DNA of 64,000 bases from Lophium mytilinum (GCA_010093605.1 MU004197.1:496001-560000); one strand, 5' to 3'. Positions 1 through 63,990 are shown, numbered from the stretch's first letter. Numbers and translations are program-made. The notes: a model not told the origin generated them from the letters alone.

Positions 1-347
1 GCCTACACACCCCAGCTTCAGGGCGCTCGTCCGACATCTTTGGAAGAGTTGCAAGGGATTGGCTAGGTTTGCAGCCGACGAATACAGGACCTTGCCGGTG
101 GATGGGTTCTTGAGGAGGGGAGGTGTAGAGAACCTGGAGCAAAGAGGACTTGACGGCGGGGTTACTTCACATTTTCTTTGGCGCAACCTGGTCTAGTGAA
201 TCAACTATGCCAGGTCAGGTGACATGGCCGAGCTTTGCCGCCAGTGCCCAGCAAAATTCAATCATCGGTTCCTCATCACACCTTTCTCTCTTCTCGACCA
301 ACTTCTTTTTGCCCCCCACGCCCTTGTTTCCTCACTTCTCTGGGGGC

Positions 348-635
348 AGTTGATGACCTTTATAGAGTCAGCTGTTCTCCCTTCTTTGGGAACAGCTGAT
401 GATCTTTACAGAGTCAGCTGTTCTGCTCAGCACTAGTTGCGAAGGGCAGTACGTCGATCTCCTTAACGGTTTCGAACCGGGAGAGGCGTTTCGGGGTTTG
501 TCGATCTCTAAAACGGTAGCGAACCGGAGAGACGCGCTTTGCGTTGATCTCCTCTCGGTGGCTGGACGGAGAGGCCACTCACAGCGACGCAGATCTCCTA
601 ACGCTCAGTCCCTTGGAACGGTCGCAGCCGGAGAG
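348..635 (+). repeat. Array of repeated hairpin modules (2x AGYTGATGA..GAGTCAGCT; 4x GATCTCY..CGGT..CGGAGAG)
   Basis: First module type starts at 348 and 394; second type at 456, 503, 546 and 592 (~45-nt period). Each module is self-complementary. Confidence 0.7.
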
Positions 636-881
636 GCTCTTCTCCTGCCCGGACTTCTTTTCGCTGCCTCGCAAAACGAGTGGTCTGTGGCTATCTCCTC
701 AATAATTGGGTTAACTTCCTTCTTTCTCTGCGCAGCGACAGACGAGGATGCAAGGGCGCCTGAGAGGTCACAGTTCCTCCTTTGCATGGGGCTAAGCTGC
801 CTTCGTTCTTCGAAGTAGCTTTCCCGCGGCATCGCCGTGTCCTTCGAATACTGCCGCTGTGTTCAAGGTTTTTCGCTGACT

Positions 882-989
882 AGGTAAGTCAGGTATGTTG
901 TCCCTCCCCCCCCAGCGCCGAGTTCGCACTTCTTCGCAGTGCTGGGGACCAGTAGCCTTCGGGCAAAGCTAGGACGAACTCATCTTGTA
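882..989 (+). ncRNA. Conserved structured RNA element, copy 1 (tandem 5' splice-site motifs + nested pseudoknot)
   Basis: Near-identical to 6885-6991 and 11213-11320. Pairings 910-916/941-947, 920-926/975-981 and 928-930/938-940, plus a gcc-UUCG-ggc hairpin at 955-964. The cUUCGg tetraloop suggests the + strand. Function is inferred. Confidence 0.6.
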
Positions 990-1314
990 TACAATTCACA
1001 ATCAATCCTCTACGTTCAAATATATCTGCCTCCTTGAGGTGATTTGGTGATGTCGTGATGTTTTTATTACTCGACCAGCGACGCCTGTGTTTCTCAATGC
1101 CCTCTTAACTCTTCGTGCTTCTAATCTCTAATAGCGCCTTACAACTTACATACTCCGAAGCTCATCCGACCATCTCCTCAGCGCAGGCAACAAATACCCC
1201 GCAACCTTTGATACACCACCTGGGTCCACACCTTCTACGCCACGAAAGCATTCTCCATCACTCTACATCCATCTTCGGATTAAGAACGATACCTACACAA
1301 TCCTTCACCCCAAC

Positions 1315-1911
1315 ATGCTTTCCTTCTCCACCGCCTTCTGTGGCGCCTGCGGTCAAACCCACTACGACATCTCCTCAGAGGCCGAGGTGAAGCTCTGGAA
1401 AGATCTGGAAGCTGCCAATGCCTCCGCCGACTCCCGCGCCGTCTCCGCCATCATCGCCATTCTCCGCGATTGTTCCGCGGCCAAAGACTGCCATGCCAAA
1501 CACACTATCCATCATGCGATCAGGCTCGAGGGTGAACGCATGAAGCTAGAGCAAGAGACGTTCGACCTGAAGGTGGAGATCAAGGATCTAAAGAAGGGAA
1601 ACGAGCGCCTCCCCAACGAGCGGTTTGATGGGCGGATGGAAAATCGAGACTTGGGCGGGAAGAAAGAGATGCTGGTTGGCGAGAAGGAGGAGGCGTCTCT
1701 GCCACGGAAACTGGTCTGCCAGGCCTGTTGCGAGAGCTCTGGAACGCGAAACAGCTTGTGTGATGGGAGGTACCCGTGTACCGAGTGTATGGCACAGGGC
1801 TATACGTGCTTCTACAAGAAGTGCTTCAAGACACGCAGCGGTGTTAGATGTAAAAGCTCTACGTGTACAATGTGGCACGGCGAGGAGGGGTATAGACATG
1901 GCGAGTTCTAG
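1315..1911 (+). CDS. Zn2Cys6-like/CCCH zinc-finger coiled-coil family protein (198 aa)
   Basis: N-terminal CGACGQTHY; C-terminal RKLVCQAC..CDGRYPCTEC..CFYKKC..CKSSTCTMWHGEEGY, a pattern shared with paralogs in the window. Confidence 0.8.
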   Translation: MLSFSTAFCGACGQTHYDISSEAEVKLWKDLEAANASADSRAVSAIIAILRDCSAAKDCHAKHTIHHAIRLEGERMKLEQETFDLKVEIKDLKKGNERLPNERFDGRMENRDLGGKKEMLVGEKEEASLPRKLVCQACCESSGTRNSLCDGRYPCTECMAQGYTCFYKKCFKTRSGVRCKSSTCTMWHGEEGYRHGEF

Positions 1912-2510
1912 ACGGGGGTAGGACGTGGTCGTTGGTACGGGGACTATACAAACTGGATGTTGGGTAATTTGCAGCCCCAAACTCTACATAGTTCCGTTCG
2001 TTATTTGGGATACTTCAACATGTCATCGGAACTTGGCAGAGTGCTCAGAACCATGGAGGAAATTGATTCCACAAACAAATGCTACAGCTCTTGGACATAT
2101 TCTGGCTGTGTGAAGACACAAAACCAAACATACGGATTTTGGCCGGTAGCGTGCAGGATCTTTGCTGGGAGGTGCTCGAGAGAGCATGAAGGATTCCTAG
2201 AAAAATACTTTGGTGCTCCGGAGACTTCGAATTGTGTGATGTTCTCCTACTTGCCCGTCAGGTCAATGATGTTCGGGGGTCTGGTGCAGACAAACGTAGA
2301 AAAACTTGTGCAGTGGTGTATCCAGATGCCAAAAGGTATTTAGTGAGTTTGTCTAGTGATATCGGCACCAAGAAAACTTCCTAGTAAGGACGTAGACAAA
2401 CACTAGCACAAAGCATCTCCCCTACCTCTCACCCAGCTGTTTCAGTATCAGCCCAAAATTTCCTACCCACCGACGCATCTGGCCACTCCCACCCCACCTC
2501 CAAATCTACA

Positions 2511-2990
2511 ATGGATATCATCAATACCTGTTTCCCCAAGATGCTCTGCAACGACTGCGGCACCGAGCACTACAACCTGACGGACGAAGAAGAAGACAAC
2601 CTCTGGAACATCACTGACGGTGGCGAACTAACCGCCCAAATCATGACCATCCTCCACGACAACTCAAATCGAAAGCGTTGCCTATTCGATGCCGTTAATC
2701 GCAACGACCCCTCTCTGAAGTACCGCTTGGACAAGAAGGTGGAGACTTTCACGCACTTGGAGAGAACGTTCATTGTGCTTCAGAAAGACCATGTGGATCT
2801 GAAGGCGAGTTTTGACCAGCTGAGGAAAGCTACCATGGAGCGAGTGATAGTGTACGAGAGGAGAACACGAGCTCTATTAGAGGAGAAGAAGGCGTTGGAG
2901 GCGCGGAGTACGCAGCTGGAGTTGGGGATTGCCACGTTCAAGAGTCTTGGGCTAAGCGTGATGAAGGCTAGAGGGCATGGAGACATTTGA
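2511..2990 (+). CDS. Truncated family member: N-terminal CxxCxxxH domain + coiled coil, no C-terminal fingers (159 aa)
   Basis: CNDCGTEHYNL..LW..IMTILHD..KRC aligns with the N-termini of the genes at 1315, 10403, 61664 and 63990. Confidence 0.7.
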   Translation: MDIINTCFPKMLCNDCGTEHYNLTDEEEDNLWNITDGGELTAQIMTILHDNSNRKRCLFDAVNRNDPSLKYRLDKKVETFTHLERTFIVLQKDHVDLKASFDQLRKATMERVIVYERRTRALLEEKKALEARSTQLELGIATFKSLGLSVMKARGHGDI

Positions 2991-3221
2991 TGATTTATAA
3001 GTCGACGCGAAGCAGCGAAGACCCAGCATAGGGGAGATTAGACTAACTTTTGACGAAGCTGCCACATGATAACTGTGGCCCTCTTTACAGTGGCATGGGT
3101 TCAACAAGACTAAAGCCGGAGCAGTGAGATATCTACGTGCCCGGGTTTGCGACCCATGAATATCCACCATCCTCACCCAGGCCAATACCGCAAAGACCAT
3201 CCTCATCAAGCTATACATAGG

Positions 3222-4040
3222 CTACGTCTTTGTCTTGATAGCGCCCTCGCTCTGGCCAATCTCCCGTGCGATATCAGCGTCATAGCCATATCCCAATTCA
3301 TCGTGAATCGCACTGCAGTTCTTCGTCCGGCAAGCTGCTCCCTTCTTCCCCTTCTCGCCGTTCTTGTATCGTCTGCATCGACCATATTTGCAACCCTCGA
3401 CAAGCTTGTCGACAGTGCAGTGTGCACAAGGAAGTTGTCCGTCGCAGGCTCTGCGCTGGCGGTAACAAGCCACGCAAATGAGCTTACGGGATAGAGCCTG
3501 GGCGAGCATTTCGGAAGGTGTGGGGACTTTTGGACGAGACGCTGCTGCGTCTGCTGGAGCAGTAGCGGATCGAAGCGCTATCAGCTCATCGACGACAGTC
3601 TTGTAGTCATGCCGGAGGTCCGCGTAGAGGGGACGAAGTCTGTAGAGCTCCGCTTGATCCTGCTCATGTGCGAAAGTGACGATTCTGGCGTTCTCCTTGC
3701 TATCTCTGAGCCTGCGGGATAGGTCTTGGGATAGCATTTTGTAAGGCGTAGGGGCATGTGGATAAGGAGTTGCTGCGTTTGTTGGAGCAGCAGCGGGTCG
3801 AAGCTCTGTCGCCTCTTCGGCGACAGCCTTGTAGTCTTGCCGGAGGACCTCATAGAGGGGTCGAAGTCTGTCGAGCTCTGCTTGAGTCTGCTCGTGGGCG
3901 AGAGCGGTGTTTCTGGCGTTCTCCTCGCTGTCTCTGAGCCTGTCTTCAGTGTCTTTGAGCTTCTTACGCACTTCTTGTATTTTCTTGTTCGTTCTGTTGC
4001 AGGTGGAGCACTTCTTGCCGTCACAGTCCTGATCTGGCAT
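3222..4040 (-). CDS. Zn2Cys6-like/CCCH family protein with a 76-aa internal duplication
   Basis: First ATG at 4040 (MPDQDC). C-terminal RKLICVACYRQRRACDGQLPCAHC..CKYGRC..CRTKNCSAIHDELGYG. 228-bp tandem repeat at 3486-3941. Confidence 0.8.
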   Translation of the reverse strand: MPDQDCDGKKCSTCNRTNKKIQEVRKKLKDTEDRLRDSEENARNTALAHEQTQAELDRLRPLYEVLRQDYKAVAEEATELRPAAAPTNAATPYPHAPTPYKMLSQDLSRRLRDSKENARIVTFAHEQDQAELYRLRPLYADLRHDYKTVVDELIALRSATAPADAAASRPKVPTPSEMLAQALSRKLICVACYRQRRACDGQLPCAHCTVDKLVEGCKYGRCRRYKNGEKGKKGAACRTKNCSAIHDELGYGYDADIAREIGQSEGAIKTKT

Positions 4041-4451
4041 CTTGGCGACTTGTTGTGTTTGGTGCTTGGTGCTTGTTTGGGGTGGTGGAGAGGAAGGTCG
4101 AACAGCCAAAGAACTCTAGAAATCTGGGAGGGCTAATCGTACACCTCCACCCCTGTTATTTCACCACCTTCTAATTGGTTCAGAGGCTCGGCAGGATGCC
4201 TTCTAATATTCACTTTTACGTATATCGATCTGTTCGTGCATCTCTTCTGTATATAAGGTCATGCATGAAACCGTACAGCTGTATATACAGCCATTCCGCT
4301 TTATCGGCATCCTTCTCATCACATTTCGCCGTACATATGTACGTAGGGAAGCAATTACGCTATGTGTTACATTGCTATCATCGTGCCTACGTCATTATGT
4401 CTAGAAGCATCCCACATGTCTTAAAACCTTAACATACCATTGAAGATCGCC

Positions 4452-4622
4452 TCAAGCCATGCACAATTCCATCTCCAGAACATCATCATCACCATCATTC
4501 TTGTTCTTAGGTCTTGCTTGTGGGAATACAGTACGTCCACCGCTGCCCAGGAAGTTCCCTCCCACTCGACTCGGAATATCGTGAGCCGCCTCCCGCAGGA
4601 TGTCATCGTTGAAGCCACACCA
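4452..4622 (-). pseudogene. 3' fragment of a family gene paralogous to 8292-9215
   Basis: CGFNDDILREAAHDIPSRVGGNFL..MELCMA versus CGFDDDILREAAHKISSRVGGNFL..MELCLA; the upstream part is missing. Confidence 0.75.
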
Positions 4623-4623
4623 T

Positions 4624-4866
4624 AAATGCAAGAGCATACACGATGAGATGAGATATGGTTACGATGGTGGTATTCGGCGTCAGGCAGGACACCAGACTTC
4701 ACCTCCAGGCGGACATCACCCTATGCATGAACTTCGTGGGCCCCGGCGTCAGAAGGAGCGCGTCCTTCCCCCGATCACTGGAAAGAAATGGCCGTGGGAG
4801 GAAGGGCGCAAGGAGGCGGATGAGGAGCTTGAAGTGGAGACTGAGATGGAGTTGTGCTTAGTTTGA
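4624..4866 (+). pseudogene. 3' fragment of another family gene
   Basis: KCKSIHDEMRYGYDGGIRRQA..MELCLV matches the family CxxxHxExGYG tail and the MELCLx end. Confidence 0.65.
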
Positions 4867-6462
4867 TGTGGAATTGTTAGTGTTGACAGGCTCGAAGTGA
4901 AGCCTCGGATGGAGCTGTGTGAGTGTCTGGCTTGGTGTAGGGCTAATCGAGTTTACGGGCTTGGATGAGTGCTATGGCGATGGATTGACATCTCGATGTG
5001 GCCGTCTTACAGCGGTCCTGAGCTGCTACATGTGCCATACTAAGCCTCTCTGAGCTTTCTGACCATTAACGAACGCAAAATGTCAAGGCTCAGAGCCTGC
5101 GAATTAGACCTTCTTATCAATGTGACTCGAGTGCTTGATATATGGTATGTGGGCAGTGATCTTGCGGGTGTGTGTGTCACGCTAAGACTCTCTCAGCCTA
5201 TTGAATATAGCGGGTCTTAAATTGTATACCCCGGACTCCATCAGTTAGCACTATGTACTATTTCTGTTAAGTTCTTGATCTGTGGCGAGTGGATTGCGGC
5301 GGTGAGGATACGTGAAGTCTGGGACTTGCAAATGTGACCCATAGTAGGCTATCTCTTCAGGCACAATATATATATACTGAACAAATCCCCGCATCTCTGA
5401 GTAGGAAGGCGAGTTCGCGTGAAGCGTCGAGGGGCACGCACAAGTCACGTACTCGCCAAATCTGGTAGCGATGGTGATATGAGGTCCGGACTGCGCGGCA
5501 GATAAGCAAGTGAGAATCCCACTACCTCACCATAAGCCTTTCGTGATCCTGATCACCCAGTCCTAGTGGAGAATAGGTTACCTTTTGACTGTTTGATCAT
5601 CTGCTATCCAGGCTACTCCTGACAGTGTTACTAAGTAAGCACGGCGAATCCTCAGCATTGGTGTATCCGATTCCGTAAGGTAGTCGAGTGGTCAAAGGGT
5701 GTTCTGCCTTCCACTGTGCCAACTTTGACCTCGCGTGCTAGTTTCCCAAAGCCTCTGAAGGCGCCTCAAGTAGCGGTAATTGAATACGTTGAGTCCATTT
5801 TCGTTAGTGCTGAGAGCCGGCCGCTTCTATACGGGATCTGTTCAAAGCCCGATATCCCTGATCGTAAGGTTATGCAGTTGGATCCCCGAGTGTCCAGCCT
5901 TGCTCACCCAACACCGCTGTGAGGAGTCACCCGCACACCACGTAGCCTACTAGCCAAAGCGTAGTCCAACTTCTACTGTGTCAACTTGAACATCGCGTTC
6001 GGGGTTTCAAAAGGGTTTGAAGGCGCCAATAGCATCGGAATAGATATGGGAGATTAGGTTGTTAAGTCTATCAAATCTCTGTATATATGTGATGCTGAAT
6101 TTTATACGCAAACGTACTTCCAAGGCGGGCGTGCTTAGGTTATGTCCGCTTGCCCATCACCGCTTGAGGTCCTTTAACCCACTGTTGCAAATTGAAACTT
6201 AACAGCTTTAGCAAACTTGATATCTCTCTGAGCCACTCCAAATGGCACCACTTCAAGTTCCGGTTGCTGCAGCCCGTGATCTGCCCAGTGTAAACGTGCT
6301 TTGCACCCAAGTCACATGGGGGCTGATTTAGCGTCTTGGCGTGAATACAAAACCTCGCCAGGTCGCCCTCGCAGAACTTTCTTTCCTTCCTCACCCACCT
6401 TCATTTTCCTTTTCGCACATGCCGCCATCAGTGCTCTGTTCTTCCTCTTCTCTCGGTTCCTT

Positions 6463-6608
6463 GGAAAGGTTGAGAATCGCAAACTGCGGGTCAGCTGGAC
6501 CTTGACAACTTGGACTTTGTTGTTTGGAAAGGCTGAGAATCGCAAGGCGAATTAGCTGGACCAGGAAAGGCTGTGCGAGAGTTGCGAGTGCGCGTCCGCA
6601 GCTGGACC
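6463..6608 (+). repeat. Three repeated hairpin modules GGAAAGGYTG..GAGA..GC..AGCTGGACC
   Basis: Copies at 6463-6501, 6526-6562 and 6564-6608, each closed by a GGYUG/YAGCU stem. Confidence 0.65.
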
Positions 6609-6884
6609 ACCTGGGAATGTTGTGAGGGCTAGGATCGTCAAACGCATTACGGGGGGGCCTTAAACAGGCCGAACGGCGAGGCGGTCTTGGTCTGATCGTC
6701 ACTACTGGGACCGCGTACGGAGAACAGCAGATGATATCAATGCAGGCGCTCGGTTTCTTCTTCTGCTGGCCGCAGCGACGAGGATTCAAGGCCCGGTAGT
6801 CGCTGTACCTCCGTCCGCAAGGGAAAGTGTGCATTAACCACGCAGCTTTTTAGGTGGCATGTGTCTTCGATCTGGCGGCATCTA

Positions 6885-6991
6885 AGGTAAGTCAGGTATG
6901 TTGTCCCTTCCCCCCAGCGCCGAGTTCGCACTTCTTCGCAGTGCTGGGGACCAGTAGCCTTCGGGCCAAGCTAGGACGAACTCATCTTGTA
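6885..6991 (+). ncRNA. Conserved structured RNA element, copy 2
   Basis: Differs from copy 1 only in the C-tract (one substitution, one indel) and by one A>C next to the UUCG hairpin. All proposed pseudoknot stems are intact. Confidence 0.6.
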
Positions 6992-7445
6992 CATAAGTCA
7001 TAGTCAATCCTTCACCTTCAAATTTACCTGTCTTCTTGATGTGACCTTGGTGATGTTATGACTTCCTGGTCTAATTGCAGAAGAGGCAGACTCTTGGGGC
7101 GTATCGCTGTGTTATATCGGGCATTTTTTGGTTGACTGGCTCAGCGTCAGTCTAGCTTTGACAGCAAACTGCAGAATCATGAAGGAATTTGAAGCATACT
7201 TGAGTTTCGGTGGACGGCTTGGCATATAGTGAATATAACAGGTCATATAAGCGTCAGGTCCATATATCTTCGGTAGACTATTCGAACCGCACCCTTCAAG
7301 GTCACTTGACCATTCTTCCGCCGTGCACCCACAACTTCTCCACCGCAATCTTACTCTTAAATCTCAGTGCCTGCCTCTCCCCACCCACACTCTCTACACA
7401 GGCCATTCCCAGCCCCAACCAGCGCGGCCTTCCTCATCGGACATT

Positions 7446-7920
7446 ATGAGCGACACCAGTCATCAGTCGACCCCGGAGACGGCTCAAGAAACTCTCCGTC
7501 GTGTCATGAAAAACGCTCAGCAACTCATGGACGAGAGGGAGCAGGCAAAGAAAGATGGCGAAGCAAGTGCTCACTTCTCAAGCTCAATCGACTATCCATA
7601 TTGACGTTAGATATCCAGAAAGAACTGGAACACGTATTCAATGAGCGCGGAGCGCCATTAGAACCTGTGCTAGCGAACCTGGCTCAGCAAGTAAGACTTT
7701 CATTTCATTCTCGTATATTGATACACATGTGCTGACCATTTCATTATAGCAGGCTATCAACCGCGAGATTGCTGAAGCAATCCCTAAGCTCCGGAGCGCG
7801 ATAGCTGCTGTAAACGAGGAGAGTAGGAGACTTCGGCTTGGGATTTCGATCATCCTTGTCAAGGCAGCCCTTCTGCAGATTGAGGTGGACAGGATTCGGG
7901 TGAACGATGAGAGGGATTAG
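7446..7920 (+). CDS. Small helical/coiled-coil hypothetical protein, about 3 exons
   Basis: ATG at 7446 after a CT-rich leader. Probable GC-AG intron (~7563-7618) and a GTAAGA..CTGAC..TAG intron (~7691-7749). A degenerate paralog lies at ~11680-12060. Confidence 0.5.
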
Positions 7921-8291
7921 TCGGGGAAGGAGAGATTCCGATCAGAGGAGACAAGTCGATCAGCGGAACTAAGATCAAGTGACCATGCTATTCAGAGGCC
8001 TTGTGTAAACGTTGCAGGTAGAGATGGCAAAGACGCGCGCGCGACCATAATCGCGTATCGAGCGTTGACATCTTAGAGCTCTGGTCACTGGAGAAATCAA
8101 TGGTGGTGATGGGGACTTGCTTGCACATGCATGTGTTCTAGTGCTAGGTATAAGGCCAACAAGAGCATATTAGAACCAATGTCTTGCAGTTGTCTGAGTG
8201 AGATCGGTCCGTCAACAAGCTCGACAAGAGACAAATCCTTTTGCTATACCACTCTTACAAATCTATCGAACTCATATCCTCAGATGTCTCT

Positions 8292-9215
8292 TCAAGCCAG
8301 ACACAACTCCATCTCCATATCGTCATAATCGTCCATATCCTTAGGTCCTGCTCGCGGAGATACAGTGCGCGCACCCCTCTCTAGGAAGTTACCTCCCACA
8401 CGACTCGAAATCTTATGAGCCGCCTCCCGCAGGATGTCATCATCGAAGCCACATCCCATCTCGTTGTGGATAATGAAGCACTTCATCCTCTGGCATGTAC
8501 GTCCCTTCCTGTTCTTGTAATAGTGGCACCGCTTGTACTCGCAGTCCCTGCCGGTGCTGGTGCAGTTCTCACAGGGAAACTGTCCGTCGCATACGTCGTG
8601 GTGGTTCCAGCAGAGTTTGGACACAAGTTTGCGAGCCGCGGCTAGGGAGGCCACGTTGTTTGAGGCTGAGTGTGCTGCGCTGCGGCAGGCTGGAAGCGGA
8701 AGAGCATAGCGAGGAGCTGAAGGGTCAGTGAGAGCCATGGAGAAAGTTCCAGTCTGGGCAACGGGAGCCTGTGAGAGTTTTTGGGGGTCAGCAGGACGCA
8801 GAGGAAGGCAGATAGTGGAGGAGGTGGTGAGAATGGCTGTGGCTCTCAATTTGGACAGTTCACTCTTCAATCTGGAGACCTCATCTTCCAATTTTGAGAT
8901 ACGGTCTGTCTTTTTCGAGTCTTCGGCGAGGAGGGTATTGTAGTTCTGGCGGACGCTTTCGAACAGTGCTCTAAGCTGTTTCTTCTCTCTCTCGCAATGT
9001 TCCAGCATGGCGCTGCTCTTATCGGCCTGCTGCTTGTGCTTACTGGCGTAGTTTCGGAGGGCCGACACCCTACGGTTTGGCTTCGTGGCACAGGTAAGGT
9101 CGGTGTGTGTCTTGTCAAGAGCGACGTGTGGCTTTGCGGAATTGACCATCTCTTTGACGAAACTGTTCATCTCTTCCGGATCTCTGCCTGCCACTTCGTG
9201 GTTGCCGTGCGACAT
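8292..9215 (-). CDS. Zn2Cys6-like/CCCH family protein (307 aa; first cluster Cys replaced by Ser)
   Basis: Coiled coil followed by RKLVSKLCWNHHDVCDGQFPCENC..CEYKRCHYY..CQRMKCFIIHNEMGCG. Confidence 0.8.
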   Translation of the reverse strand: MSHGNHEVAGRDPEEMNSFVKEMVNSAKPHVALDKTHTDLTCATKPNRRVSALRNYASKHKQQADKSSAMLEHCEREKKQLRALFESVRQNYNTLLAEDSKKTDRISKLEDEVSRLKSELSKLRATAILTTSSTICLPLRPADPQKLSQAPVAQTGTFSMALTDPSAPRYALPLPACRSAAHSASNNVASLAAARKLVSKLCWNHHDVCDGQFPCENCTSTGRDCEYKRCHYYKNRKGRTCQRMKCFIIHNEMGCGFDDDILREAAHKISSRVGGNFLERGARTVSPRAGPKDMDDYDDMEMELCLA

Positions 9216-9489
9216 GTTAGCAAAGATAGAGAAAAATGCTGGTGGATGGATGGTGCGCGGTTTGCACCTGCTATTGTGGTCTTCGGGTTAGGAGGAGTAT
9301 CGTATGGTCACCGGGAACAATAATGAGTGGTAAGGTAGTAGTTAGGTGCTATTCACCTTCTCTCTGGGGATGCACATGATCCAATGCTGAGTACCATGCA
9401 AAAGCTCCCCTCAGCTATCACATCTAGTCCATTGTTCCTGCCCGCTTCTTCCTCCCTTCTACCTTGTTCGCCTCTTCCTGCTGCTTCGC

Positions 9490-10403
9490 CTAGCTCTTCT
9501 TTTCTGCGTCTTCGCGGATGGCGTCGTCGAAACCATATCCGCGCTCTTCGTGTACGTTGTTGCAGTTGCTGCTCACACAACCGTTTGGCTTGCGGCCGAG
9601 CATTTGCTCCCTATAGCGACGGCAGCGGCGAAATTTACACTTCATCTTCGACTTGCTGCATTCAGAGCAGTTGGCTTCGCCATCGCAGTCTTTGTTGAGA
9701 GTGTAGCAAGGCGTGCACACAAGCTTGCGACCTGCAGTGACGGCGGAGCGCAATGCAAGCGGCTGCGAGAACGGGGTGCGCATGATTGCCTGGCTTCGAA
9801 CGTGTTCTCGGAGAACTGTCAACTCGGCGGACATGTCCTCGCGGACTCGAACAAGACGCGCTTCTGAGATGTGCTAGACACAAAGTCGTTAGCTGTGAGA
9901 TTAGAAGGACAGTTTTGAAAGTGTAAGCTTACCGCTTTCTCTGCTGCAACTCGATGAATGGTAACTTCTCTCTCCGCGGTGTCCAGCTTCGACTGTAGGT
10001 AGGCTATCTGTGCCTCGAGTGTAGCTCTCATACGAGCCTCCTCTGCCTGCATCTGTGCCTTTTCGGCCGCCTTCTCCAGCTGTACCGCCGAGAGCTTCTG
10101 CTGTAAGATGCTGATCTCCTCCTCTAAGATCTCCTCTACGCCTTCCAATGCCTCAGATAGGCATTCGTCCTTCTCTTCCCAGCGCTTGATTTCATTGGCC
10201 TGAAAGTCGATTTGACGGGCCGCAATGGCTTGCTCGCAGTTCTTCGCCAGTGTGAGATCCCGGAGGACGAGAAGGATCTCCTGTCGCTCTGACGGCTCGA
10301 GATTGTTGGTGCCAAGGAGGGAGTGCAGTCGTAGCTGTTCATTCACTTCTACGAGGTAGTGCATGCCGTTGCACGCAACGCAATGGGAAGTAGGGTACAA
10401 CAT
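9490..10403 (-). CDS. Zn2Cys6-like/CCCH family protein, one intron (9874-9932)
   Basis: The two ORFs join in frame through a 59-nt GTAAGC..CTAAC..TAG intron. N-terminal CVACNGMHY; C-terminal RKLVCTPC..CDGEANCSEC..CKFRRC..CVSSNCNNVHEERGYG. Confidence 0.85.
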
Positions 10404-11212
10404 AGCAGCCCGCTCGTAGGAGTGCAGAGAATTGCCCCGGTGAGCTGAGAATGTGGTGAAGTAGCGGTGTTGGCGAGACGAGATGTTGAAGGGGGGAGGT
10501 TGTGAAGAGGTGAGGAGTCGAGGAGGTGCTGCGACGGGCTAGAAGTACTCGTTTGCGATGGTGCGGTGGGGATTCACCGCCCCGCTACCCGGCAGAGATG
10601 TTGTGGACAGACTGTTTACTTGGGAACGAGTGCATAAATCGGCTTTCACGTGGTATCAAGTTATGTACACGTGATCAGGCTGCTGAGTCATCTGCCAAGG
10701 CCACACGAAATATTTTCCTATAAGAGCTCGCTTGCCCGTCCAACTTCCGTTCTCGCACCACCTTCCTCACATCTTTTTTCACCACCATCTCGCATGCTAC
10801 CACCACTCTATAGGCCAGTAGATCGACTGCGGTGCGTTGGGGAATGTTCGTGGTCCCCTTCCACCGTTAAGGCAGTCTTTCGTGCGATACGAGAGGAGGA
10901 GGTTGGCCAGGAGGGCAAACGGTTTGCTTCTTTTCAGGGGGACTGTTGCGTTGGTCCTCTTTGGGGGAGACACCCTCCCGACGTCGCCTCACCATCTGTC
11001 GTTTCGCGCACGAGGAACCGTCAAGTGGTTCGAGCCGACCTCTGTCTTTGCAGCACCAAGACAAGTCCTCGTTCTCACGGCATCGCCATCGGTACCCTCG
11101 AAACGCAAGGGAGAATGCCGCGGCGATGGAGCCAGCTTTCGGATACCCAGGCCGTTCGCCCGCATACCCCCCATCGTCCGTTGGATCTCCAGGTGGCATG
11201 CACCCGCTGCTA

Positions 11213-11320
11213 AGGTAAGTCAGGTATGTTGTCCCTCCCCCCCCAGCGCCGAGTTCGCACTTCTTCGCAGTGCTGGGGACCAGTAGCCTTCGGGCAAAGC
11301 TAGGACGAACTCATCATGTA
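11213..11320 (+). ncRNA. Conserved structured RNA element, copy 3
   Basis: One mismatch versus copy 1 over 108 nt. A TATAA at ~10718 and a CT-rich tract lie ~500 bp upstream. Confidence 0.6.
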
Positions 11321-11676
11321 TATAATAATTAATTCACACCCTTCAATCTAAGTCCTGACTGCCTTCTTGATATGGCTTGGTGATGTCATGACGTGTTTGT
11401 CCAGCTGCACGGTTCCAACAGGAAACTCTGCACCAGCACTTACCCATGAACAGCATCAATGGCAAATCTATCAGCATTCTCACCTGTTAGTAGCCGCCAT
11501 TGGTCTCATTGACTTCACTGCTGATCTTTGCCACCACGCCATCAAAATCTTTTCATGAACATCCTCCAGCCCGTGGGTTTCACCGGCCAGGCAGGTCGTT
11601 CTCTGAGACTACGTCATTACTTCAGCTCCCCCGTCCCAGCCAAAATCAAAGCCGACTATTCACCAGCACCGCGAAC

Positions 11677-12060
11677 ATGCTGCCTAGGATCGCGGCGTCC
11701 AAGGTACACAAAGCACTGAATGTAAGGCTACTCCCGTAGTCTCGAAAACCGCAGGAGACGATCCAAAAGTCCGAAGTGACAGCCGAAGCTGTGCTAGCAA
11801 AACCGGCTGGGGGAGTGAAAGGGCTTGTTCGATCCCGCATATCGTTCGAAAGTCGCACGCTAACGACTTGATACAGACGGCTATCGACTGAGAGCTTCTG
11901 AAAGCCTTCCCACACTCTAGAGAGCCCTGGCTGCTCTGCGCGAAGAGCGCGAGAGACTTCGGCCTGTCGAATCGGTTGCGCATATAAGGAACGCCCTACT
12001 AAGTATGGCGGTGGGTAGAGCTGAGTTGGACAATGGGAGGAATGGTTGGAGAAGGAGAGA
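11677..12060 (+). pseudogene. Degenerate paralog of the 7446-7920 gene
   Basis: Shared GCTGCT..GAGACTTCGGCYTG..GCCCT segments. The downstream 12060-12245 region aligns with 7930-8115. No intact ORF. Confidence 0.45.
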
Positions 12061-13808
12061 CAGACGGAGGGATATTCTCAGTCAGCTGGAGCTAGATCCA
12101 ATGACCATGGTGCTCAAGTTCTGTCTACAAATTGCATCCAAAGAAGGAAAAGACACGTATGCGACCATTGTCGCGTCACAAGTGTTGGCATTTCAGGGCG
12201 CGGATCACTAGTACAAGTTGGGAATATCAACAGGGAATGGGGGTAGTACATATGCTCGTCCTTTGAAACTCAATAGAACGACAGTATCATTTGTTACTGC
12301 CCCAGCTATATACAAGAGTCGTACCGACTTCTCCTCAACGCCTGAGGTAATAAGAGGAAGTTAGCAACTTCGCAAATGTAAACAAGGCATTTACTTACGT
12401 GAAAGGCTTGTTAGTGGCGCCACCATCCTTCTAGCGTGTCGCAGCAGGGGACTATCAACCTCCTCCCGACCTAAATGAATGATATGGCAGTCGAGACATG
12501 CCACTGGAAAGCCTCCGGCTGGATGCGCAGTCCCTTACGAAACGAAAGTGCCATGAAGCCTCGCGAGCACAAACCCCCTTGTGAGTTGCCCCCCAGACAG
12601 GAAAGTGAGTGGCAGCTTCAGAGATCATCATGACACCAGGTTTCGCGAGTCGACAAAGGTGATGTCGGTTGTGGTGTGGTTCTCTTCGCCGAACGACGTA
12701 TGAGCTCCCACGGCACAAAAGCGTCCTTTGCCGAGCAGTTCAGCTTTCTAGCCAAACCCAAGAAAAGAGAACGAATCCGAGGATGTGGCATGTGGTGGGG
12801 GTGGGAGATCAGAGATTGAGGTGGTAGAAGGATGGAGAGAGAAAGTATTTGCGAGGAAGGACTTGCTTAAGTAGAGAGCCGGGAATGAATGATCAGTGTC
12901 GCACGTGAACGGAGGTCCAATACATGGGATCTCGTCATTCTATTCACTAATCTTTCGATTGTCCCAGATCTGAGATTCCTACTCATAAGGGACAACTCTT
13001 GTGCGATATATCAAGATATTACATGCATGCTAAAACGACGAACTGAAATTTATGAGAATAAGACTCAGACAACGCACTTGAATACAGCAAATCTTTAATC
13101 CAAGTGTAGCGGCAGTCCGAAACCATTTTAGGTGACCTCGAGAGTTGTCAAGTTTGCCAAAACTGCTACTCTACAGACTGTGATACCAGACTAAAGGGCA
13201 TCTACCAGTAACGGGCCTGAATATAGAAGACAAGCACACAAACCCAGAGAAAGAAATAGCATATAAAACCTAAATACCAAGTACATACAGCTGTCTGTGT
13301 CCAATCTATAAAGCAGCCTGTCCGTATCTATCTACTATGCAACCACCCCCAACACTGGCACAAACTAGATTAGCTTGAATAAATCTGGAACCAAACTGAA
13401 AATCCTCAATGCCACGCCAGACAGTGAAGATGTGGAGACAAACGTTCAAGTGCACCTTTTTCAACCTTGCCACTGTTGGGGGTTCCCCTAGAAACATTCG
13501 AAAGTGTAAACCAAAGCAACAGTCCATGCATTGAAGAACAGACTAGTATTTGACGGACAGCGTACTATTCAGCTGGACTGCTTCTGACAGAGATTTAGAC
13601 GAACACGACTTAAGTTAGTGTACCGTGCATAGAAGGGCAAGCTACCTTTCGACTGCCAGCCAACCATTCAAGTAGGGTCCTCCCGACAGTGACATAGACC
13701 GAGCAAGAACAAAGCCCTCATATCAGCATCCCCACACACCAGATCCACAACTGCCCCCTACGACACCACCACCCCAATCCTTCCATGCCACAACACACCT
13801 CCCTAATG

Positions 13809-15035
13809 CTACAAACCTCTCTTCCTCTTCCCCGCCACCACCCCGCCTCCCACCTCCTCCCCGCCCCTATCCAGCGAAGCAGCCTTCCTCCTCGCCGCAT
13901 TACCAATCTGCAGATCCCACCCATACCCCAGCTCGCTATGCACCGCAACACATCTCTCCTTCGTGCAACCAAACTCTCTCGACCCGTTTGCGAGCTTCCT
14001 ATGCTGCTTGCACAGCTCGTACCGGCACTTCTGCGCGTCTCCGATGCCAACGCAGTAAGCGCAAGGATGCGCGCCATCGCAGTCTCGACCGAGCTTGCAG
14101 CAGGTCACGCAGTCGAGCTTCCGGGGCCCTGATGGGCGTGGAGAAGGGGAGATCGGGGGATAGAGCCCTGGCGGCATCGTGGGGCTGGTGGCGGGGATGA
14201 TGGGGGTTTGAGTGGGAATGGTAGGTCCGATCGTTGCTTCGTCTGAGCATTCGGACTTCAACTTCGTCTCCTCCGCGCGTTCGGAAACCGGAGCCTCCTT
14301 ACTAGCCGCCCTAAGCTGCCTGACTTCCGCAACAAGTCTATCATTGCTGTCCGTAAGCCGCTTGATCTCGCCTTGATTCGCCGCTTTCCACCTTCGCGCA
14401 TCCACCTCCGCGACCCTCAACTTTATCGAAATCGCATCACGCTCCCTCTGAAGCGCCGCTATCATACGCTTCGTGTCTATGGCCGTGACGGCCGCGATCT
14501 TCAGATAGCTAGCCTCTAGCGCACCGTGATGTTTCTCAGCTGTTTCGCGCCATTCCCTCTGGTTCTCGAACCTGTCATTGGCTATCCGCAACTCGACGCG
14601 GAGTAGATCAAGCTGCGCTGCATCGTGCTGCCGCTCTGTGTGCCACGCGGCGTGCTCTTCTTTCAGCGCGTCGTGCAACTCGGCGGCTGATTCGCGCTGG
14701 AGCTTCTCGTTCGCGTACCGCTCGTTGGCAATCTGCACCTCGACGCGGAGTAGATCGAGCTGCTCTACGTTGTGCTTCCGCTCCGTGTCCCGTGCGGCGT
14801 GTTCTTCCTCTCGTGCCTTTATGAAAGCATGCTGTTCCATCCTTAACTCGTTAGCCTCGGCGGCGAGCGTGGCCACTGCGCAGTCGATGGATGCGCGGAT
14901 CTCGTGTGCTGCGTCGGTAGAGTCTGCCGTCCGGTATCGATCGATGAGGAGCATCAAGGCGGCTTGGTTGGAGGGTACGGGGATCTCGTGGTGGGTCTGG
15001 CAGATACGGCAGGGCGTGGACCCGGAGGAGGACAT
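13809..15035 (-). CDS. Zn2Cys6-like/CCCH family protein (408 aa) with a 49-aa internal duplication
   Basis: N-terminal CRICQTHH, long coiled coil, then RKLDCVTC..CDGAHPCAYC..CRYELC..CTKERCVAVHSELGYG. Confidence 0.85.
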   Translation of the reverse strand: MSSSGSTPCRICQTHHEIPVPSNQAALMLLIDRYRTADSTDAAHEIRASIDCAVATLAAEANELRMEQHAFIKAREEEHAARDTERKHNVEQLDLLRVEVQIANERYANEKLQRESAAELHDALKEEHAAWHTERQHDAAQLDLLRVELRIANDRFENQREWRETAEKHHGALEASYLKIAAVTAIDTKRMIAALQRERDAISIKLRVAEVDARRWKAANQGEIKRLTDSNDRLVAEVRQLRAASKEAPVSERAEETKLKSECSDEATIGPTIPTQTPIIPATSPTMPPGLYPPISPSPRPSGPRKLDCVTCCKLGRDCDGAHPCAYCVGIGDAQKCRYELCKQHRKLANGSREFGCTKERCVAVHSELGYGWDLQIGNAARRKAASLDRGGEEVGGGVVAGKRKRGL

Positions 15036-15670
15036 TTCGGCGGAGCCTGGGGGAGAGGGATGTACCGATAGAAGCGGGGAGGTGTTGGATTGCAGAGAGA
15101 GGCTTGTGCGTGTGAGGGCGTAGGTATCGTAGGTTGGCGGAGAACGAAAGGTGGTGTTAGATCGCGGATATTGTAAGTTATACGGCGTGAGCGTTGGGTG
15201 AATGGGGGTTCGGAGCTAGGCGATCTTTCATGTACCATACTTGAGATGGGTCTTGGTCGTTAACGATGACGAACCGCGTTTTGGGGGAAGTTGGTCCAAA
15301 GGAGGCGGAACCAGTCTGAATCGAAAAATGATTTGAATCTTGTGTCTCTAACTGGCAGAATGAGCCCGCGTGTCCACTCTCCATGGAGCAAAGCTAGCTT
15401 CTCCCCCGTCCGATATCTGCAGCAGTGGACCAATCCGTCTCAGTCTGCTCAAGCTCCAATCCTGCCACCTCAACGCCACCGTGAGGAACAGCCTGAGGAG
15501 TAGGTAGTCGGTCAGTCAAAAGGTAACGAGATCTCTATAGCATCGCCGTTTACATGGTATGGTATCCCAAGACCACACTGATGGAACCGATAGCTGCGCA
15601 ACGAGACAGAAGACATAAGAAAGAATTGCGAATCCAAGTTTCTACTTAGCTAGAATATGTTCCATCCCCA

Positions 15671-19450: not shown

Positions 19451-19579
19451 TTAAGTTAAGAAGAAGTAGATAGAGAAGTAGGTTAAGGCCTAAGTATATA
19501 CTATATATAGCCTTTCTATTTAATATATACTCTATATATAGCCTTACTATTTTAGCCTTACTATTTTCTATATACTCTC

Positions 19580-21185: not shown

Positions 21186-21202
21186 AATACCCCCTAATTA
21201 AT

Positions 21203-21290
21203 AGATAGTATATATATTATAGGTAGTATATATATTATAGATAGTATATATATTATAGATAGTATATATTAGATAGATAGTATATATCTA
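21203..21290. repeat. AT-rich minisatellite, ~16-18-nt unit (TAGATAGTATATATATTA)
   Basis: 4-5 tandem copies visible. Confidence 0.7.
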
Positions 21291-21381
21291 TTACTATATA
21301 CTCTACCCTCTATTACCTAGTAGAGTAAGATTAAATACTACTTTATTCTTCTAGTATAGCTGCTTAAATCTATATAGCTTC

Positions 21382-28595: not shown

Positions 28596-28599
28596 CTTC

Positions 28600-49177: not shown

Positions 49178-49539
49178 CGAGTGCCGAGGAGGCGTTTCCT
49201 TTGCGTTTGGTTTAGGGTGGGGGTTTTGGGTTGGTTTCGGTTGGGTAGGGAAAGGTAGCGTGAGGGGTGGGTTCAGTTCATTAGTCTTTTCCTTTTTTTG
49301 AAGGTTTTCGAGGTTGACGGTGAGGGTTGAGGTGATGTGTGGGATTTTAATATCTTACTTCCTGGGTCTTGACTTCGCCGTTCTCGCTGGTAAGCTTTCT
49401 GGGCGTCTTTTCCGATGCCGACAAGTCTGAGCTCTACCTTCATCTCTTCTACTCAAAGCCCACGCGCTGGGCTTGTTCTTTCTTTCTTCACTTAACCGTC
49501 TCTAGCCTTGCCACCGGGAAACAAACGACAGAAACAGCA

Positions 49540-49800
49540 CCGCTCTCAGAAAGCCCGCGCAATCTCCAGTTCGCGACCTGCCACGGCTTCGATCACCGCT
49601 GCGAGGGCGCGTTCCCATGCCATACGTGCATGAATAAAAGTGAAGGGGACAAGTGCCGATGTGACATCTCCAAAGAGCATGAGAAGTTAGCGAGGGGAAG
49701 CGAGCGTACGGTTGCTGAGATGGCAACTGTGGTGCCGCTTCTGAAGAGCTCAGGTTTAGGTCGGACGAGAGTATCAAGGATGCTGGTTTCAATAGAACTG
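49540..49800 (+). pseudogene. Degenerate Zn2Cys6-like/CCCH family remnant
   Basis: RNLQFATC..CEGAFPCHTC..KCRCDISKEHEKLARGS, then after a frameshift AYGC*DGNCGAASEEL; parallels the C-terminus of 13809-15035. Confidence 0.6.
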
Positions 49801-60662: not shown

Positions 60663-61664
60663 CTATCGGACCTGGTAAACCTTCTCGTCGTGAACGAAGC
60701 CGCAATCCGGGTTCAAACAGCCAACTTCGGTGTTGAAGTAAGCGCACCTGCTATACTTGCAAGTCAGATGATCCCGTCTGCAAAGCTTGCATGGGTAGCC
60801 ACCGCTGCATTCCACTCTGAGCGTATAGCACTTTTTGCACGTCAGCTTGCGACCTCTCCCTCCACGGGGCGGCATATGGGGCAGAGTATCTTCGACGTTT
60901 GCGCCCGTTGGAGCGGCAGGCAAGGGATGAATATTGACACCAGTCAGCGGAGGCATAGTCCTCTCCCGCAAGTTTCGCGCCGGGTTCGGGGCGGCAGGTA
61001 CATGTCTGGACTTCGCGATGCCTATTGGAGCAGCGCCCATGAAAGCCTTGCGACGGAGGTCTGCAACGCTCGGTCGGCGCTGCAGCGTATGGCGCTGATT
61101 ACCGTTGCCAGCAGCTGGAGTTTGTTCCCGTCCCTGGGCCCTCTCGAGCTGGCTCGCCAACTGCAGATTCTCTTCCCGGAGCTGCGCGATCATGTTGTCT
61201 TTGGCCTTCTTGCCTTCCTCCCACTTCTCTTCGATCCCCATGTGTAGGTCTTCATTTTGCTGGAGCGCACGTTCTTGGCCCTGCAGTTTGCGCTGCAGTT
61301 CAGTGATTAGATTGTTCTTCGTGTCGCGCTCGTGCTCTGCGGTAGCTAGCTCAGCGCGCGCGAGTTGGGTGTTGGTGTGGAGGGTTTCGTTCTCCTTCAT
61401 TGTGTCTTCTAGTTGGGCGATTATTCCCATCTTGTCATCGTGCTCCCGCTCTGCGGTCGCCAGCGCGTCACGCACGGCCTCTTGGCTCGCGCAGATTTTG
61501 GAAGTAGAGACATCTTGGAGAACGTCGCGGAGTTTGTCCTTCTCGATGGTGGAGAGGGTATCAAGTTCTTTGAACAGGGCCCAGAGATCTTTCTCGTCAT
61601 CGGCGGTGAGGACCCAATGGTCAGATTGGCAGATAGGGCAATGGCGGATGCCATACGTGTCCAT
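60663..61664 (-). CDS. Zn2Cys6-like/CCCH family protein (333 aa)
   Basis: N-terminal CPICQSDHW. C-terminal C-x2-C-x6-C-x5-C-x2-C-x6-C followed by C-x8-C-x4-C-x3-H (CAYFNTEVGCLNPDCGFVH). Confidence 0.85.
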   Translation of the reverse strand: MDTYGIRHCPICQSDHWVLTADDEKDLWALFKELDTLSTIEKDKLRDVLQDVSTSKICASQEAVRDALATAEREHDDKMGIIAQLEDTMKENETLHTNTQLARAELATAEHERDTKNNLITELQRKLQGQERALQQNEDLHMGIEEKWEEGKKAKDNMIAQLREENLQLASQLERAQGREQTPAAGNGNQRHTLQRRPSVADLRRKAFMGAAPIGIAKSRHVPAAPNPARNLRERTMPPLTGVNIHPLPAAPTGANVEDTLPHMPPRGGRGRKLTCKKCYTLRVECSGGYPCKLCRRDHLTCKYSRCAYFNTEVGCLNPDCGFVHDEKVYQVR

Positions 61665-63027: not shown

Positions 63028-63990
63028 TCAACACCCATATCCGGGCTCGTCATGAACGGATCTGCAATCCACTAATTCACAATCTTCGTCCCCGTACTTG
63101 ACGTACCAGCACAGAGCAAAACGGCATCCTAAACGACTCAATAGACAAGCCTGGCAAGGAAACTTGCCGTCGCAGCCGATTTTGCGAACAAGGCAGTTGA
63201 TACATACGAGCTCGCGAGGAGGTGATATGGGGATGATGCTATGGGGTGAAATATCTCGCGAACTCAGCTTCGAAGCACTAGGCGTCATGGTAGGCAAAGA
63301 ATGGTCGCTGTCCTCCATGATTGAGCTTCCGCGGTGACTTGGAGGGAGTCCGAGATATCCAGGATAGTCGCTGAGAGTGAGCTTCTCTGCTTCAGTCCTC
63401 TTGATATTTGGGAGAAGCTGCTGTCTACGCTGCTCCATTTCGGCCATCTCTGTGCGGAGCTGCTCCTCGGGTTGTGAAGCCTCTGACTGCTCGCCTGGCC
63501 CCTGTGATCCTTCAGGGCGGAGTCCGAGGCGAAGAAATGGCACCTTCTCCTTTTTTGTTTTTTTCTGTGGCTTCGTTGCGTCCTTTGCCGCTCCTTTGCG
63601 CTTCAACCCCTTGGGTTGGGGTTCTATGACACTCTGTGGGGCCTTTATCTTTGCCTCTAGCACAACGCCCTTACGGGTTGAGGCAGAAGCTTCATCAACC
63701 TGGGCTTTCACGGTCCCCTGTTTCTCCGTTACCTTTCTTTCTAGCGCCACACGCCCCTGCGCCAACGCAAAGACTTCCTGGGCGAGGGTCTGGTTCTCTC
63801 GGAGAAGGGTCTTGTTGGCGCAGGCTTGTGCAGCACAACGATCTTCCAAGAGGTTGGAGATATCTTCCTTCACTTCGGTATCACTGGTTTCCTTTGAGAA
63901 GGCTAAGAGGAGCTTTTCGTTTTCGTCTTCGGGGAGTATGTAGTGACCCGTCTGGCACATCGGGCAGGGTTGGCGTCTAGGCATTTCCAT
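63028..63990 (-). CDS. Zn2Cys6-like/CCCH family protein (320 aa)
   Basis: N-terminal CPMCQTGHY; C-terminal RELVCINCLVRKIGCDGKFPCQAC..CRFALCWY..CELVDCRSVHDEPGYG. Confidence 0.85.
   Translation of the reverse strand: MEMPRRQPCPMCQTGHYILPEDENEKLLLAFSKETSDTEVKEDISNLLEDRCAAQACANKTLLRENQTLAQEVFALAQGRVALERKVTEKQGTVKAQVDEASASTRKGVVLEAKIKAPQSVIEPQPKGLKRKGAAKDATKPQKKTKKEKVPFLRLGLRPEGSQGPGEQSEASQPEEQLRTEMAEMEQRRQQLLPNIKRTEAEKLTLSDYPGYLGLPPSHRGSSIMEDSDHSLPTMTPSASKLSSRDISPHSIIPISPPRELVCINCLVRKIGCDGKFPCQACLLSRLGCRFALCWYVKYGDEDCELVDCRSVHDEPGYGC

Follow-up and report, generated by a model that had tools for sequence, protein, structure and literature searches.

Introner-like elements (ILEs) and low-copy near-identical introns of Dothideomycetes were reportedly described by van der Burgt in 2012. 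In the leader intron of Neurospora NMT1, a thiamine pyrophosphate (TPP) riboswitch is said to control alternative 5′ splice sites. The host genes of small nucleolar RNAs (snoRNAs) have drifting exons and conserved introns. According to two papers by Collemare (2013, PMC3609843; 2015, PMC4457414), ILEs are long, multi-copy and sometimes located in 5′ untranslated regions (PMC4457414; PMC3609843), have low free energy (PMC3609843) and degenerate fast (PMC4457414), the mechanism of their multiplication being still unknown (PMC3609843). Here, we analyzed a 64,000-nt stretch (GCA_010093605.1 MU004197.1:496001-560000; hereafter the window) of Lophium mytilinum, a Dothideomycete of the order Mytilinidiales, in which one element recurs as copies e1, e2 and e3 among genes of a zinc-finger protein family. 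The original prediction had proposed an RNA–protein system, in which a long non-coding RNA (lncRNA) with variable hairpin arrays and a constant 3′ pseudoknot was amplified in one cassette with fast-evolving dual-finger coiled-coil proteins. We favor, at about even confidence, a different reading, namely that a non-coding unit exists here as three old paralogs, each with a long intron whose conserved 5′ part is the element.

The repeat search of positions 1–16000 and the alignment revealed three copies of one repeat family, all on the + strand and with start-to-start spacings of 6002 and 4329 nt. Searches for the element itself covered the whole window, where two pieces of it used as patterns matched three times each (none expected from 100 shuffles) and an nhmmer profile of the three copies gave three matches with E-values of 6e-69 to 7e-70, the next ones having E-values of 0.88 and 7. 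The element is real and has exactly three copies within the 64-kb window. Two pieces of its core, 36 and 22 nt long, were found at no locus in metagenome scans. This core comprises the 101 nt starting from the first G of GTAAGT (Table 1); e1 and e3 agree at every one of the 101 positions, and e2 matches each of them at 98 of 100 positions plus one gap. Over the 75 nt following the core, identity is only 63% (47/75) between e1 and e3, 77% between e1 and e2, and 68% between e2 and e3, and outside the element a forced alignment yields 36–46% for all pairs. Given the divergence of the 3′ part, the probability of so few mismatches in the core is 3e-9 to 3e-21. Self-blastn of positions 1–17500 detected no further similarity among the neighborhoods of the three copies. 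Crucially, the left edge of conservation coincides in all three copies with AAG/GTAAGT CAG/GTATGT (slashes mark the putative splice sites), two tandem and perfect matches to the splice-donor consensus. Several other origins of the element were rejected: a 25-codon open reading frame (ORF) within the core is frameshifted in e2, as judged by reading the sequence; ARAGORN found no genes that would point to a tRNA or short interspersed element; and a transposon left neither terminal inverted repeats nor target duplications visible by eye, the 49 intergenic ORFs containing no Pfam family except for one sub-threshold HALZ match on a neighboring gene (16131–17270).

Because the core opens with these donors and a TGAC/TGAT block and a CAG follow ∼190 nt on, the element most likely represents the 5′ part of an intron of 190–195 nt, as far as the sequence can tell. 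The block, TTGGTGATGT(C/T)(A/G)TGA(C/T), is semi-conserved and lies ∼160 nt into each copy, with the first CAG 12–19 nt later, so that perfect donors and an acceptor-like end without CTAAC are found in all three copies. The introns of the window that are confirmed by contig joints (see below) measure 58, 59 and 155 nt, each with a CTAAC branch point, and the predicted introns exceed them in length, as would be expected of ILEs. This anatomy would equally suit a mobile intron, either introner-like or of the low-copy near-identical type, spread by intron multiplication so that the three copies are insertions or descendants of insertions. The host is a Dothideomycete, the donors are canonical and the acceptor plausible, the length of 190–195 nt is far above the 58–59 nt of confirmed introns, near-identical copies do exist, and an RNA-derived contig that diverges from e3 after position 11285 suggests a further copy elsewhere. 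Yet identity is not uniform along the element (e1 and e3 share 100% of 101 nt, then 63%), unlike the neutral decay expected after a recent insertion and unlike the even decay expected of an ILE. Furthermore, the hosts are paralogs rather than unrelated genes, only three copies are present in the window and none of them in its other genes, the fold lacks unusual stability, although low free energy is reported for ILEs, and ILEs are reported to degenerate fast. We regard a mobile intron as unlikely, if more probable than the other alternatives weighed below.

To judge transcription, we relied on one public run kept as contigs (X1), whose kind was guessed to be RNA and which contains 0.07 of the sampled words. 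Gaps in these contigs carry no evidential weight, including the one over positions 1–9344 with e1 and e2, and depth figures cannot rank parts, even where they differ as much as 110 for the contig on 10770–11165 and 7–17 for its neighbors. Three intervals with GT..AG borders are missing from the contigs. Among the resulting joints, 9873/9933 corresponds exactly to the annotated intron of KAF2490302.1 (P0009), the protein encoded letter for letter by the family gene g9490/9819 (exons 10403–9933 and 9873–9493), and the X1 contigs therefore derive from spliced RNA. In the unit that hosts e3, here called unit C, the contig on 10770–11165 begins 51 nt past TATAAGAG, a second joint connects 11721 to 11877 across a GT..AG interval on the + strand, and a further contig covers 11877–12243. 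Based on these contigs and on the GT..AG joint, unit C is transcribed and spliced on the + strand. Another contig aligns at lower likeness with the initial 71 nt of the core (11215–11285) and continues for 255 letters; the 30-nt run-on after 11285 is absent from the window, and this contig may derive from an additional copy of the module, partly different and located at another place in the genome.

The units that host e1 and e2 (units A and B) resemble unit C in layout. A CAC(G/A)TG-type box lies upstream of each copy, at 219, 6311 and 10668, as does a CT-rich block (ACCAMCTTC), and the promoter blocks of the three units can be aligned. The 450–580 nt between the promoter region and the donors differ among the copies, the first exons of A (∼720–790) and B sharing one weakly similar block (69% over 74 nt, E = 8e-4). 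Downstream, positions 7648–8089 of unit B match 11772–12209 of unit C in colinear fashion, with 64% identity over 451 columns (E = 3e-35); the corresponding part of unit A is homologous to neither of them. Mismatches between B and C do not follow a codon period (22, 20 and 18; 8, 5 and 10; 8, 10 and 9 by codon phase), and stop codons interrupt the frames at different places in the two units. An ORF in this downstream region was rejected as coding, given the missing periodicity, no relative among longer proteins and no match to the hidden Markov model (HMM) of the N-terminal domain of the neighboring protein family. The same applies to the first-exon ORFs of e1 and e3 (139 codons each), which are mutually unrelated (E = 22) and absent from the protein collection, unlike the family genes g1315, g2511, g3222 and g13809, which are present in it. 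From their sequences, the host units are old paralogs and look like non-coding transcription units. In this respect, the lncRNA units of the original prediction hold up: they behave as non-coding transcription units, and the one with e3 is represented in spliced RNA-derived contigs. As a separate observation, CAGCTG is over-represented in the window (31 found, 19 expected; none of 100 shuffles reached 31), with three sites in the 46-nt tandem repeat of e1 (369–420), two in the first exon of e2 (6492–6604) and one exactly on the predicted acceptor of e3 (11402).

How these features could work together can be outlined as follows. The three elements would represent a single non-coding transcription unit of RNA polymerase II in the form of old tandem paralogs, each consisting of a CAC(G/A)TG-type promoter box with a CT-rich start, a fast-drifting first exon of ∼450–580 nt and an intron of 190–195 nt. 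The first 101 nt of this intron, nearly invariant and starting exactly at two tandem consensus donors, would form a module whose donor region is modeled to pair with the module end, thereby closing a three-way junction. Such a module would act in cis on the transcript that contains it, through control over donor use or processing, and would itself be spliced out; purifying selection would maintain it, possibly aided by short-tract gene conversion. The position of the units among the Zn2Cys6/CCCH-type genes would result from duplication of both within one fast-evolving cluster, and the e3 unit would share a divergent promoter region of 194 nt with g9490/9819.

Several observations weigh against an intronic module of this kind. 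The branch-point-like block reads TGAC/TGAT or CTAAT and not CTAAC, as in all three confirmed introns. No X1 joint spans 11214/11405, even if gaps in these contigs carry no weight, and a copy of the core up to 11285 is present in an RNA-derived contig. The matches that make unit A a paralog of the other two are weak, and with three linked copies purifying selection and gene conversion are indistinguishable. Moreover, the predicted fold is unremarkable: the whole element has a folding z-score of −0.54 (54 of 200 shuffles fold as well), the core has z-scores of −0.73 (e3) and −1.14 (e1), and of 34 core pairs 32 are invariant, one has a change in a single partner and one is disrupted in a single copy.

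The consensus structure computed with RNAalifold is a three-way junction in which columns 5–20, the donor region, pair with columns 89–107 at the end of conservation, enclosing a 13-pair hairpin and a UUCG-capped hairpin. Since the three copies are near-identical and no core pair is changed on both sides, covariation speaks neither for nor against this fold; the two or three positions at which e2 differs lie outside its helices, which supports it weakly at most. The opposite strand of the core folds with a z-score of −0.36. An unusually stable fold with compensatory changes, as expected of an ILE, was thus not seen. Similarly, Rfam returned no matches in the window at gathering thresholds and none in the e3 unit (10760–11450) at E-values up to 10, and in positions 1–16000 it gave only two chance-level matches, neither on the core, one of them being snoU25 (E = 2.9) in the e1 repeat. 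A snoRNA was also rejected by its boxes, as the C-box-like ATGATGA on the minus strand occurs only in e3 and both e1 and e2 read AAGATGA. The constant 3′ pseudoknot gains no support as a structure from these results: its proposed strands, GAGUUCG and CGAACUC, are complementary in sequence and would compete with the closing helix, and the constant part, which had been taken for the 3′ end of an RNA, begins with two consensus splice donors and looks like the start of an intron. The variable hairpin arrays are found in part, since e1 contains a 46-nt tandem repeat and e2 a 27-nt repeat (copies 63 nt apart), but no repeat was found in the variable part of e3, and the first exons fold with z-scores of −2.34 (e1, driven by the tandem repeat), +0.04 (e2) and −0.63 (e3).

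The missing joint also bears on a different placement of the module, as an exonic constant domain of a mature lncRNA, in line with the original prediction, whose donor motifs go unused in splicing and serve as sites for the U1 small nuclear ribonucleoprotein, for example in retention or 3′ end control. That no joint crosses the module and that one contig covers part of the core would fit this idea, as would the perfect tandem donor motifs and the ability of the module to close on itself in the consensus fold. On the other hand, the TGAC/TGAT block and the CAG at 190–195 nt in all three copies fit an acceptor, and the structure is supported neither by energy nor by covariation, making an exonic domain distinctly improbable in our view.

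The module might also have no role as RNA but be a 101-bp regulatory site, or a tract kept by conversion, at the DNA level. Conversion is conceivable among three copies within 11 kb and in the same orientation, and the neighboring genes encode a DNA-binding Zn2Cys6 fold. CGG-N7-CCG is the classic layout of Zn2Cys6 binding sites, and two such palindromes are present in the first exon of e1, where positions 440–640 contain about four units of ∼37 nt built around GATCTCC...CGG-N6/7-CCGG...GGAGAG palindromes; two of them are exact CGG-N7-CCG, which neither e2 nor e3 contains. Across the window this layout is not enriched (14 found, 11.7 expected; 26 of 100 shuffles reached 14), and the core has, by reading, only one CCG and one CGG. 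Conversion alone also does not explain why the identity boundary is a splice donor in all three copies. We consider an element acting purely as DNA a little less probable still than an exonic domain.

Table 1. Coordinates of the three element copies, their host units and the neighboring protein family in the window
Feature	Position	Strand	Remarks
Copy e1, predicted 195-nt intron	884..1078	+	Core 884-984, then drifting part; TTGGTGATGTCGTGAT block at 1044; CAG 1076-1078
Copy e2, predicted 194-nt intron	6887..7080	+	Core 6887-6986; CTAAT and CAG at 3′ end
Copy e3, predicted 190-nt intron	11215..11404	+	Core 11215-11315; X1 contig on copy up to 11285
Unit A, promoter region	219..330	+	GTGACATGG box at 219; CT-rich block (ACCAACTTC...) aligning with B and C; putative start
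Unit A, putative variable first exon	331..883	+	46-nt tandem repeat 331-424; ∼37-nt repeated palindromic units 440-640
Unit B, promoter box, CT-rich block and putative variable first exon	6311..6886	+	GTCACATGG at 6311
Unit B, downstream non-coding region	7648..8089	+	Homologous to unit C; predicted 59-nt intron 7691-7749
Unit C, promoter and first exon	10668..11214	+	CACGTGATC box at 10668; TATAAGAG (TATA-like) at 10719; X1 contig 10770-11165
Unit C, downstream non-coding exons	11405..12243	+	GT..AG intron 11722-11876 by contig joint; contig 11877-12243
g1315	1315..1911	+	N-terminal CxxC..H motif; C-terminal Zn2Cys6-like plus CCCH-like motif; annotated protein
g2511	2511..2990	+	N-terminal domain and coiled coil only
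g3222	3222..4040	-	C-terminal domain; internal 228-nt tandem duplication
Decayed family tail	4455..4640	-	62% protein and 77% DNA identity with end of g8292
CCCH-like remnant	4627..4692	+	Decayed family tail
g8292	8292..9215	-	Convergent with unit B; first two Zn2Cys6 cysteines lost
g9490/9819, one gene	9490..10403	-	59-nt intron 9874-9932; contig reaches 10576
g13809	13809..15035	-	Convergent with unit C; annotated protein
Degenerate family C-terminal domain	49537..49701	+	Several cysteines lost; no element nearby
g60663	60663..61664	-	Full-length; shares 65% identity with a protein of Mytilinidion resinicola; no element nearby
g63028	63028..63990	-	Full-length; only window member above Pfam Zn_clus cut-off; no element nearby within window

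The loci of the neighboring protein family were mapped with tblastn and an HMM of the N-terminal domain (Table 1). As to these proteins, the original prediction is supported: they belong to a real and diverged family that combines a coiled-coil region with a Zn2Cys6 fold and, after it, a C-x(8-14)-C-x5-C-x3-H motif. Their C-terminal 70–85 residues contain C-x2-C-x6-C-x5-C-x2-C-x6/8-C followed by this motif, and in a family alignment of 47 sequences the Zn2Cys6 and CCCH ligands are invariant or at least 90% conserved. The strict pattern C-x2-C-x6-C-x5/6-C-x2-C-x6-9-C is found in five loci, and g8292 and g1315 deviate from it. Against the Pfam model Zn_clus (PF00172, cut-off 21 bits), only one of the seven window members passes (g63028, 32.3 bits), three score below the cut-off (17.7, 16.7 and 11.1 bits) and three give no match. 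The profile of the seven members, in turn, matches PUT3 (E = 7e-5), Pho7, Leu3, Hap1 and CBF3, as well as small cystine-rich inhibitors at E-values of 0.02–0.2.

Structure prediction pointed in the same direction. An AlphaFold model of the C-terminal domain from seven sequences had a mean confidence (pLDDT) of 65 and was replaced by one from the 47-sequence alignment, with a pLDDT of 85.6. In a Foldseek search with 26 matches, the first 21 of the 23 shown were Zn2Cys6 DNA-binding domains, and the model superposed on Put3 with a root-mean-square deviation of 0.7 Å over 30 residues (probability 0.98), as expected of a Gal4-type fold; the best E-value was only 0.05 because the domain is small. 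For the CCCH part, C43, C58, C63 and H67 are invariant in all seven window members and kept in the 47-sequence alignment, so that the C3H1 pattern C-x(7-14)-C-x(4-5)-C-x3-H is present. As a profile or fold it is not recognizable, since the Nab2-like zf-CCCH model gave 16.7 bits (cut-off 27) in one of the seven members and nothing in the other six, and the structural match to CPSF30 had E-values of 6.8–8.4 and a probability of 0.04. Four of ten relatives looked up are labeled ‘C3H1-type’ at the source.

HMMER, run exhaustively, found 173 family representatives at E-values up to 1e-3 and 11 at E-values up to 1e-10. Among 20 representatives looked up, the 15 with an organism name belong to Lophium, Mytilinidion, Aplosporella, Diplodia, Massariosphaeria, Coniosporium, Melanomma, Cucurbitaria, Neocucurbitaria and Amniculicola, all of which we take to be Dothideomycetes. 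The family is one of Dothideomycetes, its members having the Zn2Cys6 fold at the C-terminus and the CCCH-patterned motif behind it. At least three further Lophium paralogs (P0012, P0014 and P0023) lie on the same 1.6-Mb contig outside the window. A literature search for the combination of Zn2Cys6, CCCH and coiled coil yielded, in titles and the beginnings of abstracts, no description of such a family. Six members share an N-terminal C-x2-C-x3-H-(Y/W) motif with K-x-C ∼45 residues later (e.g. 61560–61664, − strand), which has no Pfam match and is possibly a small zinc-binding module, going by its residues. Internal tandem duplications lengthen the coiled coil, namely 228 nt present twice in g3222 (3479–3934, 79% identity) and ∼145 nt present twice in g13809 (14518–14807, 74–78%). 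Between 4455 and 4934, two decayed family tails stand tail to tail, and an ORF on the + strand (4600–4866) ends in MELCLV, compared with MELCLA at the end of g8292.

To assess whether the element and these proteins belong together, we compared their arrangement. Family genes do lie 0.25–2.4 kb to the right of each copy, at the coordinates originally given, but mostly on the opposite strand: only g1315 and g2511 share the strand of the element, and g3222, g8292, g9490/9819 and g13809 do not. Units B and C have 64% nucleotide identity, and the adjoining genes g8292 and g13809 give no blastn match and only 26–30% identity in tblastn. As the units are far more alike than the genes next to them, the locus is not simply one amplified cassette, or else the proteins diverged much faster. 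The family genes at 60.6–64 kb indeed have no element, and nhmmer across the window showed the same for the locus at 49.5 kb. Two layouts might nevertheless go beyond coincidence. The start codon of g1315 is located 237 nt past the predicted e1 acceptor on the same strand, making g1315 the only family gene able to share a transcript with the element, and e1 may, from this layout, be its 5′ leader; at e3, the contigs of unit C and of g9490/9819 start 194 nt apart and run divergently, both being covered by X1. Neither layout recurs at the other copies.

An RNA–protein system would imply that the CCCH part binds the RNA module, be it as a scaffolded regulator, an autoregulatory splicing circuit or a conflict system. 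It could draw on the physical closeness, on the two layouts just described and on the C-x(8-14)-C-x5-C-x3-H motif in all 47 aligned members, some relatives being labeled C3H1-type. However, of the six intact family genes close to elements, four lie on the other strand, the window has three family loci with no element, the units and the adjoining genes were not simply co-amplified, and the CCCH part falls below the Pfam cut-off in the one member that matches at all and hardly resembles CPSF30. We consider such a system very unlikely. Even more speculative, and in our estimate the least probable idea of all, is a trans-regulated splicing switch, in which the three-way junction of the 101-nt module hides or exposes the tandem donors as set by the CCCH part of the neighbors, so that a dual DNA/RNA-binding protein family and a lncRNA/leader family would cross-regulate each other. 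The proximity of element and genes can be explained by duplication in a fast-evolving cluster, the null explanation that had been offered from the start and that stands; we found no evidence for an RNA–protein machine.

Several features of the surroundings can be added. Weakly similar segments in inverted orientation (5577–5641 and 15463–15534; 6096–6284 and 13084–13272; 73–74% identity over 46–51 nt, tblastx E = 1e-5) connect the two flanks of g13809 to sequence upstream of unit B and are traces of older rearranged duplications in the cluster. The gene next to the cluster encodes a coiled-coil protein (ORF 16128–17213, − strand, within the region 15412–17500) and has a 58-nt intron at 16120–16177 according to a contig joint; the exact translation of this ORF is absent from the protein collection, and the annotated model probably differs. 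Further away, an AT-rich block (18000–31000) with a GC content of 0.28–0.41, compared with 0.48–0.62 elsewhere, and negative GC skew looks like a repeat region degraded by repeat-induced point mutation, which is typical of ascomycete genomes. A scan for bacterial promoters and terminators, a type unsuited to fungal DNA, found none.

How, then, does the locus compare with described systems? The proteins share with Gal4 and Put3 the six-cysteine spacing, the PUT3 profile match and the Put3 superposition, the CCCH motif following directly after. In contrast, their zinc cluster lies C-terminal to the coiled coil and not N-terminal before it, and only one of seven passes Pfam. Unlike CCCH (C3H1) fingers, their CCCH part stays below threshold, and unlike both groups they carry an extra N-terminal CxxC..H..C motif of no known family. 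As in snoRNA host genes, free evolution of the exons contrasts with strong conservation of an intron segment from copy to copy, but reading the sequence gave no convincing C/D or H/ACA boxes common to the three copies. With the leader intron regulated by the TPP riboswitch, the element has in common a conserved RNA with a predicted fold where an intron starts, a pair of alternative donors, and pairing predicted to cover a donor; it differs in having no Rfam match, pairing that is predicted only, and, for two units of the three at least, a non-coding host.

If the module is an RNA under selection at the start of an intron, it would provide a compact case (101 nt, three natural copies, drifted flanks) for studying donor choice or processing in non-coding transcripts of fungi; if it belongs to a mobile intron with a protected 5′ module, it would bear on the multiplication of ILEs. 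As described in the literature, ILEs and near-identical introns resemble our element in occurring in the same fungal class, in being multi-copy, near-identical intron-like sequences with canonical donors, in being far longer than ordinary introns and, for ILEs, in being able to sit in untranslated leaders. Here, unlike in ILEs, only the first 101 nt are frozen and the rest is 63–77% identical, there are three copies in the window, and the fold is not unusually stable. Overall, the frozen 101-nt module comes closest to the near-identical introns of Dothideomycetes, from which it is set apart by conservation of its first half only and by hosts that are paralogous and non-coding.

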